Shown here one piece after another: positions 24,403 through 31,828 of a stretch of 33,552 nt of DNA (position 1 is the stretch's first letter; every line of letters begins with the position of its first letter). This stretch comes from a virus (Duplodnaviria > Heunggongvirae > Uroviricota > Caudoviricetes), in IMG/VR virus record IMGVR_UViG_2585427747_000002, positions 1 through 33,552 of that record; one strand, 5' to 3'. A program made the translations under genes and the position numbers. Below the pieces are notes generated by a model, which saw nothing but the letters and a program-made list of their open reading frames with translations, had not been told where the DNA came from and did not search any database.

Positions 24403-24506
24403 AACAACCTCCGTGGTTAATTTGAATCAAGATTAAAACTATGGTTGTTTTTAGTCAACAACCATTTTCGTTTGATGGAATAAAACCTTGGTTGTACATT
24501 TGAACT
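24403..24506. promoter_or_regulatory. Immunity control region: OR operators with divergent pR (toward cro) and pRM-like promoter (toward cI)
   Basis: Minus strand TTGACT-17 nt-TAATCT upstream of cro; plus strand TTGATG-17-TACATT ending 7 nt before the cI ATG (leaderless-type); palindrome ATGGTTGTT-N7-AACAACCAT overlaps the pR -35. Confidence 0.7.
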
Positions 24507-25196
24507 ATGAAAACAACACTCTCAGAAAGACTTAAAGAAGCCAGATTAGCGCGAGGCCTTACACAAAAGGCGCTTGGGGATTTGGTCGGGGTTAGCCAAG
24601 CTGCTATTCAGAAAATCGAAACAGGGAAAGCTAATCAAACAACTAAAATCGTGGAGATCGCGAACGCTTTGGGTGTGCGCGCAGAATGGTTATCTTCTGG
24701 CGTTGGAAATATGTCAGACAGTACAGTGCAACCAATACAACCAACTGTCAGCCATTCCAAATACTTTAAGATTGACGTTCTTGATATAGAAGTGAGTGCC
24801 GGGCCGGGTGTCATCAACCGTGAGTTTGTAGAAGTTCTACGTTCGGTTGAGTATTCGTTTGACGATGCTCGTCACATGTTCGATGGCAGGAAGGCGGAAA
24901 ATATCCGCATCATTAACGTACGCGGTGACAGCATGTCAGGAACGATTGAACCTGGTGATCTGCTGTTCGTTGATATCACGGTTAAATCTTTCGACGGTGA
25001 TGGTATCTATGCGTTTCTGTACGACGACACAGCCCATGTAAAGCGCCTGCAAATGATGAAGGATAAGCTGCTGGTTATCTCTGATAACAAGAGCTACTCA
25101 CCGTGGGACCCGATCGAGAAAGACGAGATGAACCGGGTGTTCATCTTCGGTAAGGTTATTGGGAGCATGCCCCAGACGTACAGGAAACATGGATAA
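24507..25196 (+). CDS. cI: CI repressor (N-terminal HTH, C-terminal LexA/S24-type autocleavage domain)
   Basis: 229 aa, MKTTLSERLKEARLARGLTQKALGDLVGVSQAAIQKIETGK... and C-terminal ...NVRGDSMSGTIEPGDLLFVD...AHVKRLQ... (Ser/Lys dyad context); not lambda immunity specificity. Confidence 0.9.
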   Translation: MKTTLSERLKEARLARGLTQKALGDLVGVSQAAIQKIETGKANQTTKIVEIANALGVRAEWLSSGVGNMSDSTVQPIQPTVSHSKYFKIDVLDIEVSAGPGVINREFVEVLRSVEYSFDDARHMFDGRKAENIRIINVRGDSMSGTIEPGDLLFVDITVKSFDGDGIYAFLYDDTAHVKRLQMMKDKLLVISDNKSYSPWDPIEKDEMNRVFIFGKVIGSMPQTYRKHG

Positions 25197-25262: not shown

Positions 25263-26126
25263 ATGGATTGTGACGCTTTACAGGATATAAAAATCTCTCT
25301 TAGGTATGACGGAAAAGATGCTTTAAATCATGAAATAGATTTGAACTGCCTAGGAGAATCCCTAAAGGGTTTTTCTAAAGTTCTCTCAACAGCAGCTTCT
25401 TTCTCTGTTACACAAAAATATAGTAAATACATTAATTATCAGGAAGTTAAGGTTTACGCACGCGAAGCAAAAGCTAACTGCTTTACTCTTGAAGCAGTTC
25501 TTAACTTCGCCACTCAGAACCAGTTGTTCTCGGGGATCGCCGCAACTATACTTGGCGCAATACTACAATATATTTTTGCGAGAAATTCTAACAAGAAAGA
25601 TGAAATGAAAGCTTTGCAGCAGTCACTTGAAAAGGCCATAGAGGCACTAGGAAACAAGGATGCTGGAACCATTGATAAGTTGATCTCTTTGATTGACCGA
25701 ATGGCTGTAGAGCTTCGCCCCTCTGTAAGGCAGGCAGTATCACCTATTGGTAATACTTGCGATCAGATAAGTGTTGCAACAAATGTTGACGGCTGCCTTC
25801 TAAAAGTTAACGAGAGAGATAAAGCTGAAATTGATAGGCTTGATGATGATGAAGTTCTCGGTCTTCGTGAGTATCGTGCTTTTCTTACAGAATTTGATGC
25901 ACAAAATATGACAGCTAAAATAATTTTAGATGGTGATGACTCAAAAAAGAGAATCACTGCTGAAATTAGCGATCCAGCTGCAGGAAAGAAGAATAACCCG
26001 TATATTAGAGCTCTTAGTGCATATATATCAACCAAAGGTGATCCATCTGCAGTATTCACTATAACCGCAAAGGCTACTGTTAAAAAAGGCCAGATAAACA
26101 GGTTATTTATTGTAGATGCGAAATGA
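25263..26126 (+). CDS. Hypothetical protein (287 aa), AT-rich, in the rexAB position downstream of cI
   Basis: [31 protein letters not shown]... with one central hydrophobic segment ([19 protein letters not shown]); gagag SD; followed by an intrinsic terminator; no family recognised. Confidence 0.7.
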
Positions 26127-26129
26127 TTT

Positions 26130-26157
26130 CCCCGGCCGTCGTGCCGGGTTTTCTTTT
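26130..26157 (+). terminator. Intrinsic terminator after the cI-operon cargo gene
   Basis: CCCGGC-cgtcgt-GCCGGG followed by TTTTCTTTT, 4 nt after the stop codon. Confidence 0.8.
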
Positions 26158-26284
26158 GCCTCCCCTCATCACACAAACCGTTCAAAAAACCACCACGACC
26201 TCGCTTCAGTTATCGCTGTGCGATGCAAGTCACAAAATAAATCCATCCTAAATACAACCATTTACATCTAAAAAAACCAATAAA

Positions 26285-26326
26285 ACAACTTTTGTTGTTG
26301 ACGACAAAACAACTATAGTTTTAAAT
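26285..26326 (+). promoter_or_regulatory. pL-like promoter with OL operators
   Basis: TTGACG (26298-26303)-17 nt-TTAAAT, or alternatively TTGTTG-16-TATAGT; palindromes CAACTTTTGTTG (26285-26296) and GTTGTT-N8-AACAAC (26294-26313) share half-sites with OR. Confidence 0.6.
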
Positions 26327-26519
26327 AAATTCATCGCAACAACACAACGATACGGCAACCACCTGATTCACCGTTGCGATGACCGCTTAGATCCGCAGCT
26401 TGAATTTCAGCAGGCTCCGGGAAGTGCGAGGGGTGAAGCGGACGCGTGAACGTCGGTGTGACCAGCTGAAATCAACACAACACTTTATACCTCAGTCGCT
26501 TCAACGAGGCGGCTTAGTT

Positions 26520-26810
26520 ATGACAACCGGCGGCCATCCACCGCCTGAATACGCGCAGAAGTCTCTATATGTTCAGCAGCCCAGCTTACGGGCAGGAGTT
26601 TTTATGGTTCATCAACATTACGGAACGCAGACCGTTAATCGCGGTGCGGTCATGCCAGGAATGCTGGTCAAACACAAAGATGGTACCTGGACTGCATCAG
26701 CTAATTTACGCGGACGGCTTTATCTGCATCGCGGCATCGAGCGCACTTATACCCGTGACTTGCTCGTGGAAGTTTTTCTCGACGGGCGCGGCAACGGTCT
26801 GAATCACTAA
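26520..26810 (+). CDS. Hypothetical protein (96 aa) between pL and gam; start uncertain (alternative TTG at 26400 gives 136 aa with an Arg-rich N-terminus)
   Basis: ATG at 26520 with GAGG 11 nt upstream; the track ORF starts at a TTG at 26400 and would add RLREVRGVKRTRERR. No family recognised. Confidence 0.45.
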   Translation: MTTGGHPPPEYAQKSLYVQQPSLRAGVFMVHQHYGTQTVNRGAVMPGMLVKHKDGTWTASANLRGRLYLHRGIERTYTRDLLVEVFLDGRGNGLNH

Positions 26811-26885
26811 TCCCCTTTCCTGTTTACCTAATCAGCCTGGCATTTCGCGGGCGATATTTTCACAGCCATTTTCAGGAGTTCAGCC

Positions 26886-27182
26886 ATGAACGCTTATTAC
26901 ATTCAGGATCGTCTTGAGGCTCAGAGCTGGGCGCGTCACTACCAGCAGATCGCCCATGAAGAGAAAGAGGCAGAACTGGCAGACGACATGGAAAAAGGCC
27001 TGCCCCAGCACCTGTTTGAATCGCTATGCATCGATCATTTGCAACGCCACGGGGCCAGCAAAAAAGCCATTACCCGTGCATTTGATGACGATGTTGAGTT
27101 TCAGGAGCGCATGGCGGAACACATCCGGTACATGGTTGAAACCATTGCTCACCATCAGGTTGATATTGATTCAGAGGTATAA
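26886..27182 (+). CDS. gam: Gam, RecBCD inhibitor (short GamS-type form)
   Basis: 98 aa, [60 protein letters not shown]..., matches the C-terminal 98 residues of recalled lambda Gam. Confidence 0.93.
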
Positions 27183-28650: not shown

Positions 28651-28805
28651 CGCATCCTCACGATAATATCCGGGTAGGCGCGATCACTTTCGTCTACTCC
28701 GTTACAAAGCGAGGCTGGGTATTTCCCGGGCTTTCTGTTATCCGAAATCCGCTGAAAGCCCAGCGGCTGGCTGAGGAGATAAATAATAAACGGGAGGCGG
28801 TATGA
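28647..28805 (+). CDS. Small hypothetical protein (52 aa), translationally coupled between exo and the PAPS-reductase gene
   Basis: Sub-60-aa ORF missing from the track: [52 protein letters not shown]; ATGA overlaps at both ends. Confidence 0.45.
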
Positions 28806-30046
28806 ACGAGGCAGCAATAATTATTGTCCCAACAGACATCAGCAAGAAAATTCGCGAAATAGAAGAGTCCTACAACAGATATATAAATGAATTTCGCATC
28901 CCTAATGATCATAAGATAATCGTGAATTATTCAGCAGGAAAAGACAGCACTGCCACACTCGCAGTGGCGCACACATTATTCGGCAAACAGGTACATGCTG
29001 TTATGGCAGACACGGATAATGAGCATAATCTAACTGTCGAATTCGCCAGGAGCATTCATGAGCAGATCGGTTGTAGCCCTGTGCAGGTTGTGAAGCGGAT
29101 TTACACTGAAGAAGATTTTACCAAACGACGAATTTATCTGCAAAAAAACTGGTCTAAACGACAGATGATCCGCATGGGAGCATACCGTGGCATAGTCATG
29201 CCTTCCCTCGCACGTTCTGACACCAAATTCGGGCAAGCCTGGAAGCGCACAGCAGAACGCTGGGGAATTGAGTTCGAAACTGCTCTTGATGCTGCGCTTT
29301 CCGTTATGCACCCATCCGGTAATAGCTTTTTGGATTGCTCCCTTCTGCATGGCAAGTTCCCTATGCTGCGCGACCGATTCTGTACAGACGAACTGAAAAT
29401 TCAGATAGCTTTCGACGCAGCCATAAAGCCGCTCCTTGATGCTGGCGATGTTATCGTACAATGGTCTGGTGTTCGCGCGGATGAGTCCTCTAAGCGCGCT
29501 GGATATGAGAGGTTTTCCCGCGATATGCGCGACGCCGATTTTCTCTACAACTTCCTGCCGCTCCACAAATGGACGGCTGAGGACGTATTCGCAGTTCACA
29601 AATATTTCGGAATTAAGCCAAATCCACTTTATATGCAAGGTGCGTCTCGTGTTGGCTGCATGAATTGCGTGCTATGCAACAAAGAGGAAATTGCAGAGAC
29701 GGCTGCGCGCTGGCCAGAGCACATCAAAAAGCACAAACAATGGGAGTTGAAGGTACGCCTTGCTAGTAGATGGGTACACTGGATGAGCGTAGGAGAGATA
29801 AGCCAACGCTGGATGAAACAGTTCAATCTGCCACTTGGTCGAAATATTCAACTTTTTGGGCTAAAACCTGATGTGCAACACATCGACTGGTCAGGATTTT
29901 ATGGTCCTCGTGGAGATCTTAATTCTCCGGGTGTTTATGAAGTCGTAGAGTGGGCAAAAACAGGGCGCGGTGGCAAGGTCTACGATCTTGTAAAAGCAAG
30001 TCTCGATATAGAGGTTTGCTCTTCACGCTACGGTCTGTGCGAATAA
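28802..30046 (+). CDS. PAPS-reductase-family protein (PP-loop ATP pyrophosphatase fold; IbrA/DndC-like)
   Basis: 414 aa with PP-loop motif (…NYSAGKDSTATL… near residue 43); length and architecture resemble prophage IbrA as recalled. No ParB-like partner gene follows. Confidence 0.7.
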   Translation: MNEAAIIIVPTDISKKIREIEESYNRYINEFRIPNDHKIIVNYSAGKDSTATLAVAHTLFGKQVHAVMADTDNEHNLTVEFARSIHEQIGCSPVQVVKRIYTEEDFTKRRIYLQKNWSKRQMIRMGAYRGIVMPSLARSDTKFGQAWKRTAERWGIEFETALDAALSVMHPSGNSFLDCSLLHGKFPMLRDRFCTDELKIQIAFDAAIKPLLDAGDVIVQWSGVRADESSKRAGYERFSRDMRDADFLYNFLPLHKWTAEDVFAVHKYFGIKPNPLYMQGASRVGCMNCVLCNKEEIAETAARWPEHIKKHKQWELKVRLASRWVHWMSVGEISQRWMKQFNLPLGRNIQLFGLKPDVQHIDWSGFYGPRGDLNSPGVYEVVEWAKTGRGGKVYDLVKASLDIEVCSSRYGLCE

Positions 30047-30057
30047 TACTAAGTTAT

Positions 30058-30660
30058 TTACTCATTATTTTTTGATAATACAACTTTCTGCCAAGTTATC
30101 TGGTTACGTTGAAAACTATCTTTATTTATTGACGTAACTCGCAATGTTTTCAGACCTAACTGAGACGCTAACTCAAGAAGTTCCTCAGTATTAACAACGT
30201 TAATGTTTCTATCTGGTTCGGGAGGTCCCAAGCGCAATGTAATTATCATTCTCCCATTCAATGTTAAAAGATCAGTTAGCGTCTCTAGTGAGATTTTTTG
30301 CTCTTTTTTTGAAAGATGCATCCATACAGCACTGACTAAAATAAGGTCGAACTTTAGATTCATTGCTTTAACACTATGAAGAAAAGGCAATGAATCATCT
30401 AACCATATAATATGGTTAGATTTATAATATGAAGATGCCAAATTTCGCATCTTTTCACTTGGTTCAACAGCTATTACTTTATAACCTAATTCATCTAACG
30501 CAGCAGCATCACGGCCGGAACCTGAACCGACATCCAAAGAGACACCCTTAGATTGTAAAATAAACTCTTCAACATCCTGAAAGATAGAGTAAAAATCAAG
30601 TGATATATAATCGGCAAATAAGCGATCAGCATTATTGTCATAAAACTTCCACGAAGTCAC
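30058..30660 (-). CDS. Class I SAM-dependent methyltransferase (200 aa; small-molecule / TehB-like type), AT-rich cargo
   Basis: Motif I LDVGSGSGRDAAALDELGYKVIAVEPS and post-I acidic residue, motif DLILVSAVWMHL; overlaps the upstream membrane-protein gene by 4 nt (operon). Confidence 0.7.
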   Translation of the reverse strand: MTSWKFYDNNADRLFADYISLDFYSIFQDVEEFILQSKGVSLDVGSGSGRDAAALDELGYKVIAVEPSEKMRNLASSYYKSNHIIWLDDSLPFLHSVKAMNLKFDLILVSAVWMHLSKKEQKISLETLTDLLTLNGRMIITLRLGPPEPDRNINVVNTEELLELASQLGLKTLRVTSINKDSFQRNQITWQKVVLSKNNE

Positions 30661-31241
30661 TTTGATAATCCTGATTTTGCTTCGATAAATAATCCTGACT
30701 CAATATTTTTAATTGTTGCTTTGTATGTATTATGTGAAATGTCTTTTGAAAACAAGTTTGGATGATATACCCCAGCAATATTAACAAAGAAGCAAACAAT
30801 AAGCATTACTGCCCAGCACGACACTACTATGTAACCAGTTTCCTTATTATCATAGCTAGAGGGCAATTTAAATCCAGCGTCTCTAGTAATTTCATTTAAA
30901 ATATAGTTTTTTGAAGGGTCTTCAATGTTTTTTTGTAGTGCTATTTTCGAACCAATTAAAGACCTTAAGCGATAAAGTGTAATCATTGTTGTGAAATCAA
31001 ACAATGCTAACACTGCAAAGATAATCCATAGGGAACTTTCATTTGCCAGTGTTGTTGCATACCACAACCCACCATTGACAGCAATTACGAAACTAGGGAT
31101 TTGCCACATGAGCTGATTTAAAGCCCGCATGTGTTGTCCTGCTTCAAGATAAGTAATCTCCTGCAGCTTCTGATACCAACGGATTGCCTCAATTTTTAGA
31201 TTTTCGTTAATCTGTTGCTGTTGCTGTTGCTGATTTACCAT
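30657..31241 (-). CDS. Hypothetical membrane protein (194 aa, about 3 TM segments, N-terminal poly-Gln), AT-rich cargo
   Basis: Start MVNQQQQQQQINENLK... at 31241 (track ORF has an 18-codon upstream extension); hydrophobic segments IPSFVIAVNGGLWYATTL, LWIIFAVLALFDFTTMITL, YIVVSCWAVMLIVCFFVNIAGVY. Confidence 0.6.
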   Translation of the reverse strand: MVNQQQQQQQINENLKIEAIRWYQKLQEITYLEAGQHMRALNQLMWQIPSFVIAVNGGLWYATTLANESSLWIIFAVLALFDFTTMITLYRLRSLIGSKIALQKNIEDPSKNYILNEITRDAGFKLPSSYDNKETGYIVVSCWAVMLIVCFFVNIAGVYHPNLFSKDISHNTYKATIKNIESGLFIEAKSGLSK

Positions 31242-31507
31242 GTAATCCCTGCTCAACGAACTGAAACTTTTAATGATGCTATCACAACTTATCAAGAAGA
31301 TGAATTTCGTTATTTAAATTTAATATATCGGAGGCTTTTATCAGAACTTATACATAATACAAGCCCGAAGGCTGTCACCAGACAGGAGCATCAATAACAT
31401 TTGCCGTAGCGTACTGAAGAAGCACCGCGAAACGGTAACGCTGAGGGATTCACACCGACTCATTTAAGCCTGGCGATCGGCATGTTAAACGGCATCTTTA
31501 AGGAGCG

Positions 31508-31603
31508 ATGAACATGAAAAGCAAAATCATCAGGGAGCTACAGGCTCCTTTTTTATTATTCGCATTCACCCTCAAGCGTATTAACCAACAATTCAGAGAT
31601 TAA
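31508..31603 (+). CDS. Candidate small ORF (31 aa) with strong RBS upstream of the traR-like gene
   Basis: TAAGGAG 5 nt before ATG; MNMKSKIIRELQAPFLLFAFTLKRINQQFRD; contains the terminator-like hairpin at 31533-31556; stop is 6 nt before the next start codon. Confidence 0.3.
   Translation: MNMKSKIIRELQAPFLLFAFTLKRINQQFRD
31533..31556 (+). terminator. Terminator-like hairpin with T-tract upstream of the traR-like gene
   Basis: GGAGC-tacag-GCTCC followed by TTTTTTATT on the plus strand. Confidence 0.5.
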
Positions 31604-31609
31604 TGGAAG

Positions 31610-31828
31610 ATGGCAGACATCATTGATTCAGCATCAGAAATCGAAGAATTACAGCGCAATACAGCAATAAAAATGCGTCGTCTGAACCACCAGGCTATAT
31701 CTGCCACTCATTGTTGTGAGTGTGGCGATCCGATAGATGAACGAAGACGCCTGGCCGTTCAGGGTTGTCGGACTTGTGCAAGTTGCCAGGAGGAGATCGA
31801 ACTTAAGAACAAACAATGGGGACTGTGA
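31610..31828 (+). CDS. TraR/DksA-family C4 zinc-finger protein (RNA-polymerase-binding type)
   Basis: 72 aa with CxxC-N17-CxxC (CECGDPIDERRRLAVQGCRTCASC); same family as recalled lambda Orf73 / TraR. Confidence 0.8.
   Translation: MADIIDSASEIEELQRNTAIKMRRLNHQAISATHCCECGDPIDERRRLAVQGCRTCASCQEEIELKNKQWGL

Follow-up and report, generated by a model that had tools for sequence, protein, structure and literature searches.

A conserved structured RNA in the pL leader of a lambdoid prophage lies in the position of put and nutL and is a candidate early anti-termination signal upstream of a 68-codon kil gene

Lambdoid phages are a textbook model of transcription control for the anti-termination of their early genes, for which, to our knowledge, only two solutions have been described, the N protein with its nut sites and the put RNA. 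We analyzed a 33,552-nucleotide (nt) stretch of viral DNA, IMG/VR record IMGVR_UViG_2585427747_000002 (referred to as the window), that contains a lambdoid prophage early region. The segment of interest extends from the promoter pL to gam (26886). A first-pass annotation had found there one open reading frame (ORF), which could encode an N-like antiterminator if translated from a TTG at 26400. The comparisons presented here point to a different arrangement. The pL transcript almost certainly starts with an untranslated leader, and the first gene, kil, would be translated from an ATG at 26604 into a 68-amino acid cell-division (FtsZ) inhibitor of the KilR/Kil family. The leader includes a structured RNA of about 80 nt (26384-26463), here called the core, in the slot taken by put or nutL in other phages. 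The core is probably, though far from certainly, the early anti-termination signal of a phage family that has neither N nor put.

Within the predicted transcript, on the plus strand, the core extends from +52 to +132 and consists of two stem-loops on which RNAalifold and manual pair counts agreed. Domain A (26384-26428) is formed by stem P2 (26384-86/26426-28) and stem P3 (26393-26402/26411-26420) with the loop AAUUUCAG at 26403-26410, and domain B (26432-26463) by P4 (26432-34/26461-63) and P5 (26438-44/26451-57) with a loop at 26445-50. Within the window family the leader 5′ of the hairpin cassette described below is nearly identical. Four diverged versions of the core were found, in loci L009, L034 (Scandinavium), L143 and L220/L221, and the blocks GATGACCGCTTAGA, CTTGAATTTCAGCAGG, GGGGAGTGCGAGGGGTG and GTGTGACCAGCTGAAA are invariant and common to the core versions. 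Paired cells amounted to 93%, against 25-40% when the partners were slid, and five pairs changed on both sides across five lineages. Three of these are in P3 (G-C/A-U, A-U/C-G/G.U) and two in P5 (A-U/G-C; A-U/G-C/G.U), which is 97% paired. A covariance model of the core detected exactly one copy per carrying locus (in the window at 26369-26481, with 138 bits) and did not match HK022, HK639, HK225 or phi80. Neither Rfam nor the literature that could be searched contained a description of the core; the whole window gave no Rfam match at the gathering score, and the region 26250-26900 gave only noise (E >= 0.7). Scans for more diverged cores produced 0 matches in metagenomes and only 3 in viral sequences.

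The features of the leader that the first-pass annotation had listed (the ORF, an arginine-rich string, an inverted repeat and a long-range complementarity) were all located within 1-2 nt of the positions it gave. The inverted repeat, described as ATCGCAAC (26333-26340) and GTTGCGAT (26373-26380), in fact reaches 9 bp, CATCGCAAC and GTTGCGATG (26332-26340 with 26373-26381), and is the closing stem (CAUCGCAAC/GUUGCGAUG) of a separate 5′ domain that spans 26332-26381 of the plus strand. The minimum free energy of this domain was -11.6 kcal/mol (z = -2.3), and 3 of 200 shuffled sequences were as good. L034, L143 and L009 retain the closing stem in a shortened form, in which CAUC..GAUG is combined with AAC/GUU or GAC/GUC. 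A local 5′ hairpin, AUCG/CGAU, is possible instead of the inverted repeat, but the diverged lineages keep the long closing stem. At the very start of the pL transcript, ~20-50 nt (CAUCG(A/C)AAC...) are conserved between phages that differ in immunity and in anti-termination module (window 26332-26350; phi80, locus L223 1801-1845; HK639, locus L222 2501-2553), which suggests a separate function of the 5′ end, for example as a stabilizing stem-loop.

The long-range complementarity is between GCTTGAATTTCAGC (26398-26411) and GCTGAAATCAA (26465-26475), with one bulge, and its 5′ arm is mostly the loop of the covarying hairpin P3. The heptamer CUGAAAU (26466-26472, plus strand) is complementary to the P3 loop, and this helix, helix 3, is 89.8% paired. 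Both arms are invariant in the five diverged lineages except for changes that keep pairing through G.U; the variation of helix 3 is limited to single-sided A to G changes giving G.U (L009, L220, L049/L136), with no compensatory change. If it forms, the pairing of the P3 loop with 26466-72 would be a possible loop-to-3′ pseudoknot or an alternative fold and not a simple long stem. Immediately downstream, the CA-rich CAACACAACAC (26473-26483) contains the GcvB target consensus CACAACA, where most relatives have CAACTCAACAC. A role as a GcvB sponge like AgvB, which sits at the pR′ moron site (PMC4104026), was considered; the motif is not conserved in relatives and is probably not functional.

The initial suggestion had included an RNA structure of the nut or put type in the pL leader. 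What stood of it is a structured RNA in the slot of nutL (phi80) and putL (HK639); the fold differs from the one proposed, and kinship with put in sequence was not found. The first ~20 nt of the window transcript are homologous to the pL starts of phi80, HK639 and HK225. The L143 leader agrees over its first 45-53 nt with the pL transcript starts of phi80 and HK225 without a mismatch, and with that of HK639 at 96% identity; in HK639, the next ~125 nt carry the GenBank feature "putL-like antiterminator RNA". Two exchanges were observed. L143, L220 and L221 have both HK639 flanks, the 54-nt 5′ domain and TTACCAGCAGCTCTTTGCGAGGGGCTGACGGTAAACAA on the 3′ side, and the core replaces put between them. 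L047 and L050 show the order pL, 5′ domain, putL and H1/H2 cassette, and the window has the same order with the core in place of putL. In phi80, the annotated nutL boxA and nut core come right after the same 5′ domain and precede N, tL1A, the cassette and, further downstream, kil. The 135 distinct leaders with this 5′ start, obtained from loci fetched by put, core and cassette patterns and so informative on exclusivity and not on prevalence, comprised 60 with a boxA-type nutL, 42 with put and 33 with the core; none had two of these and none lacked all three.

No N gene was found in the window or in its annotated relatives. The first gene after the core differs per lineage (kil, an HNH endonuclease gene, a PHROG 1965 member, a gene for a Cys-rich protein or a 56-amino acid ORF) and no antiterminator is among these first genes; Kil is the only protein common to the core-carrying left operons. 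Two strong intrinsic terminators separate the core from kil in L143 and L220. In the window, a strong intrinsic terminator of the pL operon (31532-31560, plus strand; AGGGAGCTACAGGCTCCTT then TTTTTATTATT) precedes a DksA/TraR-like gene (31610-31828, a match to PHROG 54), xis and int, and is a candidate target of read-through. The core is read as an early anti-termination signal because it is swapped with put, lies in the same slot as nutL and is mutually exclusive with both, because no N or put was found, and because terminators lie downstream.

The events could then be as follows. Transcription from pL, starting at ~26332, would produce a 270-nt untranslated leader (26332-26603) composed of the 5′ stem-loop domain, the 80-nt core and a cassette of three hairpins that ends in the kil ribosome-binding site, with the stem of the first hairpin, H1, burying the ATG at 26520 and kil translated from the ATG at 26604. 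The nascent core RNA would fold and, in cis, make RNA polymerase resistant to termination, either by direct binding to the polymerase, as put RNA does, or via host factors. The polymerase could thus cross the long leader and downstream terminators such as that at 31532-31550, and kil-gam-bet-exo and xis/int would be expressed. We hold this account as a whole, with the core as anti-termination signal, to be just on the probable side. That the core represents a third class of early anti-termination signal, one that is cis-acting, unrelated to put, devoid of boxA and boxB, active alone or with host factors only, and a replacement for nutL-N-tL1, is a tentative proposal that may well prove wrong. 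That it acts without any protein, as put does, is possible but more doubtful.

Several observations weigh against the core as an anti-termination signal, and the way in which the 135 leaders were gathered, given above, is one of them. The start of kil, the non-coding nature of the leader, the conserved structure and the equivalence in position with put and nutL come directly from the comparisons. Position is not function, and we infer anti-termination activity and its mechanism. The putL function in HK639 rests on the GenBank feature and on King et al. (2011), as cited (reference 31) in PMC9378689. The covariation in the core comes from five lineages, hence from few events, and the thermodynamic z of the core alone, -0.77, is unremarkable (that of the whole leader, +0.38, is uninformative). 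A put covariance model, R2, was built from 16 put sequences; true putL sequences score 88-95 bits (HK022 putL 94, HK639 putL 88) and HK022 putR scores 49. With filters off and E up to 10, R2 did not match 26330-26480, and BLAST of the leader against HK022 putL and putR revealed no similarity. R2 with filters off found no put elsewhere in the window either. By the profile criterion, then, the core is not a member of the put family, and that it works like put is suggested by position and interchangeability. The pL leader of the window has no boxA; "CGCTTAGA" was considered as a degenerate boxA and discarded as its U-rich center is missing. A second core copy in the pR operon, the analogue of putR, was not found by block search or by the covariance model. 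No strong terminator was detected between pL and exo in the window or between core and kil in L034, and the need for anti-termination is less obvious in these two because no strong terminator is near pL. A partner protein may also be encoded elsewhere in the phage or in the host.

The core could instead be a leader element with another job, such as mRNA stabilization or processing, control of translation or of Rho access at the first gene, sensing in the manner of a riboswitch, or action as a trans-acting or sponge RNA. The core is always found in a 5′ untranslated region (UTR), the P3 stem and the loop-to-3′ pairing could alternate as a switch, and the window and L034 have no strong terminator nearby. 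Lambdoid module exchange, moreover, can also join unrelated functions. Nonetheless, the core is exactly interchangeable with put in two flanking contexts, and core and both known anti-termination signals exclude one another across the 135 leaders. The gene downstream differs per lineage, and therefore the core is not a gene-specific regulator; another job would also leave these phages without early anti-termination despite the strong terminators of L143 and L220. We consider this alternative unlikely, though it deserves to be kept in mind.

A second alternative retains anti-termination and makes the core a nut-type recruitment site in need of a partner that was not recognized. The partner could be a phage protein whose gene is located elsewhere than in the pL leader, or it could be of host origin (Nus or other factors), as in the case of the rrn leader. 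On the minus strand, at 24155-24143, the window has a perfect rrn-type boxA, CGCTCTTTAACAA, directly behind the stop codon of cro and ahead of the CII-like/YdaT gene. It suggests a use of host Nus factors, at least for the right side, and may support Nus-factor-dependent anti-termination of the right operon. This boxA is missing from 4A7, which has another cro allele and the same core and pL leader, and there is no boxA in the core itself. A 15-nt match of CGCAGCTTGAATTTC with CGCAGCTTAAATTTC after cro was judged mostly coincidental; its CGCAG is not conserved in L034 and L143, and no other part of the core is present after cro. As for a phage partner, several early genes are of unknown function and the genes on the pR side (cI, cro, YdaT/CII-like, O and P) are common to the window and L221, but the core travels with different immunity regions and no protein other than Kil is shared by the core-carrying pL operons. 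A recruitment site of this type is improbable, and an anti-termination signal acting in cis through the RNA remains the reading we favor.

The identity and start of kil were determined by comparison with protein families and homologues. The ORF from the TTG at 26400 to 26810 (136 amino acids), with an in-frame ATG at 26520 (96 amino acids), is present, and it is indeed the single ORF between pL and gam. The 96-amino acid protein had been assigned to no family; its C-terminal 68 residues, however, are recognized by the profile of PHROG 294, "Kil protein for bacterial septation inhibition" (E 1e-38, over positions 4-80 of 83), and by that of the NCBIfam FtsZ inhibitor family NF008465 (E 4e-17, over positions 1-70 of 73), the latter aligned from the methionine of a third start, the ATG at 26604, which had been overlooked. 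The NF008465 score, 61.9 bits, is below the curated cut-off of 92, and the window kil is accordingly a relative of Rac KilR and not an equivalog. By homology, the window Kil is expected to inhibit FtsZ. The real coding sequence, 26604-26810 on the plus strand, has a strong Shine-Dalgarno sequence, AGGAG (26594-26598), 5 nt ahead of its ATG. Among 80 database homologues, of which several were named "cell division inhibitor protein" by their source, conservation begins only at MVHQHYGT and the residues before it are unrelated or absent; several of them begin exactly at that methionine. An ATG with a Shine-Dalgarno sequence is found at the homologous position in 26 of 27 kil loci of other genera (Citrobacter, Klebsiella, Kluyvera, Leclercia, Scandinavium and others), the exception being L030, in which the match begins at residue 5 and an ATG is found a few codons upstream. 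In these 27 loci the in-frame upstream extension is not conserved and a stop codon occurs 1-77 codons back.

The distribution of variable sites over codon positions 1/2/3, counted in 33 distinct close relatives, agrees with this start: 0/5/20 in kil (26604-26807), 8/6/5 in the extension from the TTG (26400-26519) and 4/2/6 in that from the ATG at 26520 (26520-26603). The RefSeq kil coding sequence (CDS) is 207 nt long, with the product "phage encoded cell division inhibitor protein". Phage D2 is identical to the window through ...AGGAGTTTTTATG, and right after that ATG it changes to a different ORF and a lambda-type kil. Kil lengths are inconsistent (128 or 96 amino acids) or the gene is split in PV340567 (PhiR47_2), PP925829 (IdasGreatGrand) and OM475427 (D2), and the IdasGreatGrand record has a spurious 31-amino acid CDS over the core RNA. 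The comparative evidence for 68 amino acids thus corrects a recurrent error by which Kil is called with 96, 128 or 136 amino acids in several phage records.

The hairpin cassette (26486-26603) that connects the core with kil was found in at least 120 viral contigs of IMG/VR, in HK225 and in phi80 (locus L223, 2530-2663). Elsewhere it comes nearly always directly after an intrinsic terminator (in phi80, tL1A after N) and is followed by many different first genes; in phages that encode N or put it follows tL1-type terminators. On the plus strand, hairpin H1 (26486-26522) has 15 bp, with an inner stem at 26494-26502/26506-26514, GAGG in its 3′ arm and a base, CAUA/UAUG, that contains the ATG at 26520-22. 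In 41 distinct sequences H1 was 96.9% paired, 9 of its 15 pairs changed on both sides, and its covariation was 0.349 against 0.128 in shuffles (reached by 0 of 500), whereas slid controls were 31-50% paired; its fold z was -2.7. The structure is assigned to the RNA of the plus strand because G.U pairs are frequent. Hairpin H2, GGCGG-CCAUCCA-CCGCC (26529-26545, plus strand), is almost invariant in sequence, and at least 120 IMG/VR contigs contain it unchanged; when copies were located by an independent anchor, 106 of 121 were identical to it and the others one base off. Constraint on structure and constraint on sequence are indistinguishable for H2 because there is no covariation. Hairpin H3, GCCC-AGCUUAC-GGGC (26579-93), is followed by the AGGAG (26594-98), so that both occupy 26579-26598 of the plus strand ahead of the kil start, and has a compensatory variant, GCGC-GGCUUAA-GCGC, in L033 and L060. 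The cassette is a structured 5′ UTR that plausibly controls translation or processing after tL1, not a kil start, and it is a second widespread structured 5′-UTR element absent from Rfam.

These data bear on the ATG at 26520, one of the two starts initially proposed. A 96-amino acid product could be the real Kil or a second isoform, and MTTGGHPPP... could serve as a functional extension at its N terminus or act as a leader peptide that regulates by stalling ribosomes at its prolines. The ATG and GGHPPP are conserved in most copies of the cassette, GAGG lies 10 nt 5′ of the ATG, the frame runs into kil in the window, and PHROG 294 aligns from residue 20 of the 96-amino acid form. However, this ATG is in the base of H1 (CAUA/UAUG, 100% paired), and in L107, where it is replaced by AUC, a compensating C-to-G change is found. 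The short ORF that it opens is variable, 10-31 codons long, and sometimes frame-shifted or fused to the next gene: it ends before unrelated genes in L009 (at a TAA ten codons on), HK225, L025, L032 and phi80, and the frame is shifted in L038, L074, L114, L104 and L082, being out of the kil frame in the last two. Variants of H2 were synonymous in 3 cases and non-synonymous in 6, and Kil homologues begin at the downstream methionine. MTTGGHPPP as a conserved leader peptide is not supported in view of the frame shifts, the H2 substitutions and the H1 pairing, and a 96-amino acid product in any of these roles is very unlikely.

The TTG at 26400 fared worse. TRRRERR of lambda N resembles the arginine-rich string RLREVRGVKRTRERR that follows the TTG. 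The string is present, but it is not a protein motif: the codons CGG ACG, CGT GAA and CGT CGG, which spell RTRERR, are the 5′ arm, the loop and the 3′ arm of P5 (26438-26457), and the arginines are considered a by-product of a GC-rich RNA stem because of this. In the close relatives, an in-frame TAG (26493-95) or a frameshift lies between the TTG and kil in 18 of 33, and among the diverged lineages the frame closes 5-16 codons past the TTG in three of five (L034, L143 and L220/L221). L143, L220 and L221 have a TGA five codons after the TTG, L034 has a TAA directly ahead of the arginine motif, L220 has an extra stop within it, and in L009 a core arginine of the motif is replaced by cysteine. 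No open frame across the core, in any of the six, is common to all five lineages. There is no Shine-Dalgarno sequence before the TTG, which is itself within the 5′ arm of P3, and no match in Pfam, NCBIfam or PHROG was found for the 40-amino acid extension or for the 136-amino acid form beyond its Kil domain. RefSeq annotates no gene on the leader (26334-26603) among the 40 E. coli records listed. Therefore, even with a frame that is open in the window and with GenBank records in which some submitters start a 128-amino acid "Kil" at a GTG, an N-like antiterminator with an N-terminal arginine-rich motif, translated from the TTG or from the GTG at 26424, alone or fused to Kil, is refuted by broken frames, by variable sites lacking third-position bias and by a pL leader with no boxA/boxB pair.

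The surroundings of the leader are those of a lambdoid early region. Upstream, on the plus strand, are cI (24507-25196), a DUF7946/DUF7947 moron gene (25263-26126) and an intrinsic terminator, CCCGGCCGTCGTGCCGGG then a T run (26131-26158), that closes the cI-moron transcript 5′ of pL. The pL promoter (26298-26326, plus strand) was read from the sequence as a -35 box TTGACG (26298-26303), a 17-nt spacer and a -10 box TTAAAT (26321-26326), with a predicted transcript start at ~26332/26333. The annotated pL of phi80 has the same layout, an operator-like repeat at 26306-26324 is a 95% match to that at 24433-24451 beside cro/cI, and homology with 4A7 and D2, phages of other immunity, starts at 26334. 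After pL the plus strand carries the disputed ORF, gam, bet and exo, and the minus strand carries cro, the CII-like/YdaT gene, O, P, nin genes and a gene for a Q-like antiterminator. The close relatives belong to the genus Bievrevirus (4A7, D2, Perceval, the PhiR phages and IdasGreatGrand), and, of 5426 complete E. coli genomes, 2253 contain the leader (26334-26603, 270 nt) with an identity of 95-99%.

Other features of the region were recorded. The slot between cI and pL, occupied by rexAB in lambda, holds the DUF7946/DUF7947 protein gene in the window and, in near-identical relatives, GevT/GevA (in the PhiR47_2 annotation) or a HipA-family kinase with a DUF3037 protein; it looks like a variable accessory-gene (moron) slot and is possibly a defence or toxin-antitoxin hotspot. 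Inside the pL operon, between exo and the DksA/TraR-like gene (28802-30046 and 30058-31295), a 414-amino acid PAPS-reductase-like gene on the plus strand is followed by two oppositely oriented genes, one weakly tRNA methyltransferase-like, and all three look like morons. The kil-gam intergenic region (26804-26885) is ~97% conserved in 179 phage records, many of which are Stx-converting phages otherwise without a leader and kil allele of the window type. Regarding put-type phages, locus L295 (IMG/VR) has a hybrid leader, with a boxA, CGCTCTTTAACAA, directly after put stem I (GTCGAACGGCGCGAC...AAACCATGCGTCGG) and in the place of put stem II. The HK639 locus L314 has a GenBank "M3-like RNA" at 1911-1970, after the CII-like gene; the window has no room for an equivalent as its CII-like gene overlaps O.

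If the core is an anti-termination signal, it would be a new natural RNA that reprograms RNA polymerase and is interchangeable with nutL and put, and it would offer a new point of comparison for the cryo-electron microscopy structure of put with the polymerase. It would also explain expression of the left operon in Bievrevirus-like prophages, which are very common in E. coli (~40% of the complete genomes, from the count given above). The claim is directly testable with simple reporter fusions.

Comparison with known systems places the window close to several of them. KilR of Rac and phage Kil (PHROG 294; NF008465/PRK11354) resemble the window kil in their 68-amino acid size, in the full-length profile match and in their location in the pL operon just 5′ of gam/bet/exo, whereas the 47-amino acid Kil of lambda, which takes its place in phage D2, is unrelated. 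The rrn-type boxA is represented by a perfect match, which is outside the pL leader and tied to the cro allele and not to the core, as judged from its absence in 4A7. The nutL/N system of lambda and phi80 has the same place as the core, right after the 5′ domain shared with phi80, and phi80 and the window continue alike into the same post-tL1 cassette and then kil. The segment with N and tL1 of phi80 is simply absent from the window, which lacks an N gene, has neither boxA nor boxB in its pL leader, and whose arginine string is not a conserved protein. The put RNA needs no phage protein to act in cis on RNA polymerase, and mutations in the zinc-binding domain of the β′ subunit block its action. 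Core and put share no sequence or profile similarity in either direction; the core is built of domains of 45 nt and 32 nt with a 3-nt linker and covariation, and has conserved blocks of its own (GAUGACCGCUUAGA, CUUGAAUUUCAGCAGG, GGGGAGUGCGAGGGGUG and GUGUGACCAGCUGAAA) and a possible pseudoknot. Yet the put RNAs of HK022 and HK639, like the core, lie within the first ~150 nt of the pL transcript and have no adjacent N gene, and a size of ~70-80 nt with two stem-loops a few bases apart (with internal loops in put) may be a further likeness. The putL of the HK639 type has the same flanks as the core and, as with the single core copy, HK639 has a single put, in the left operon only.

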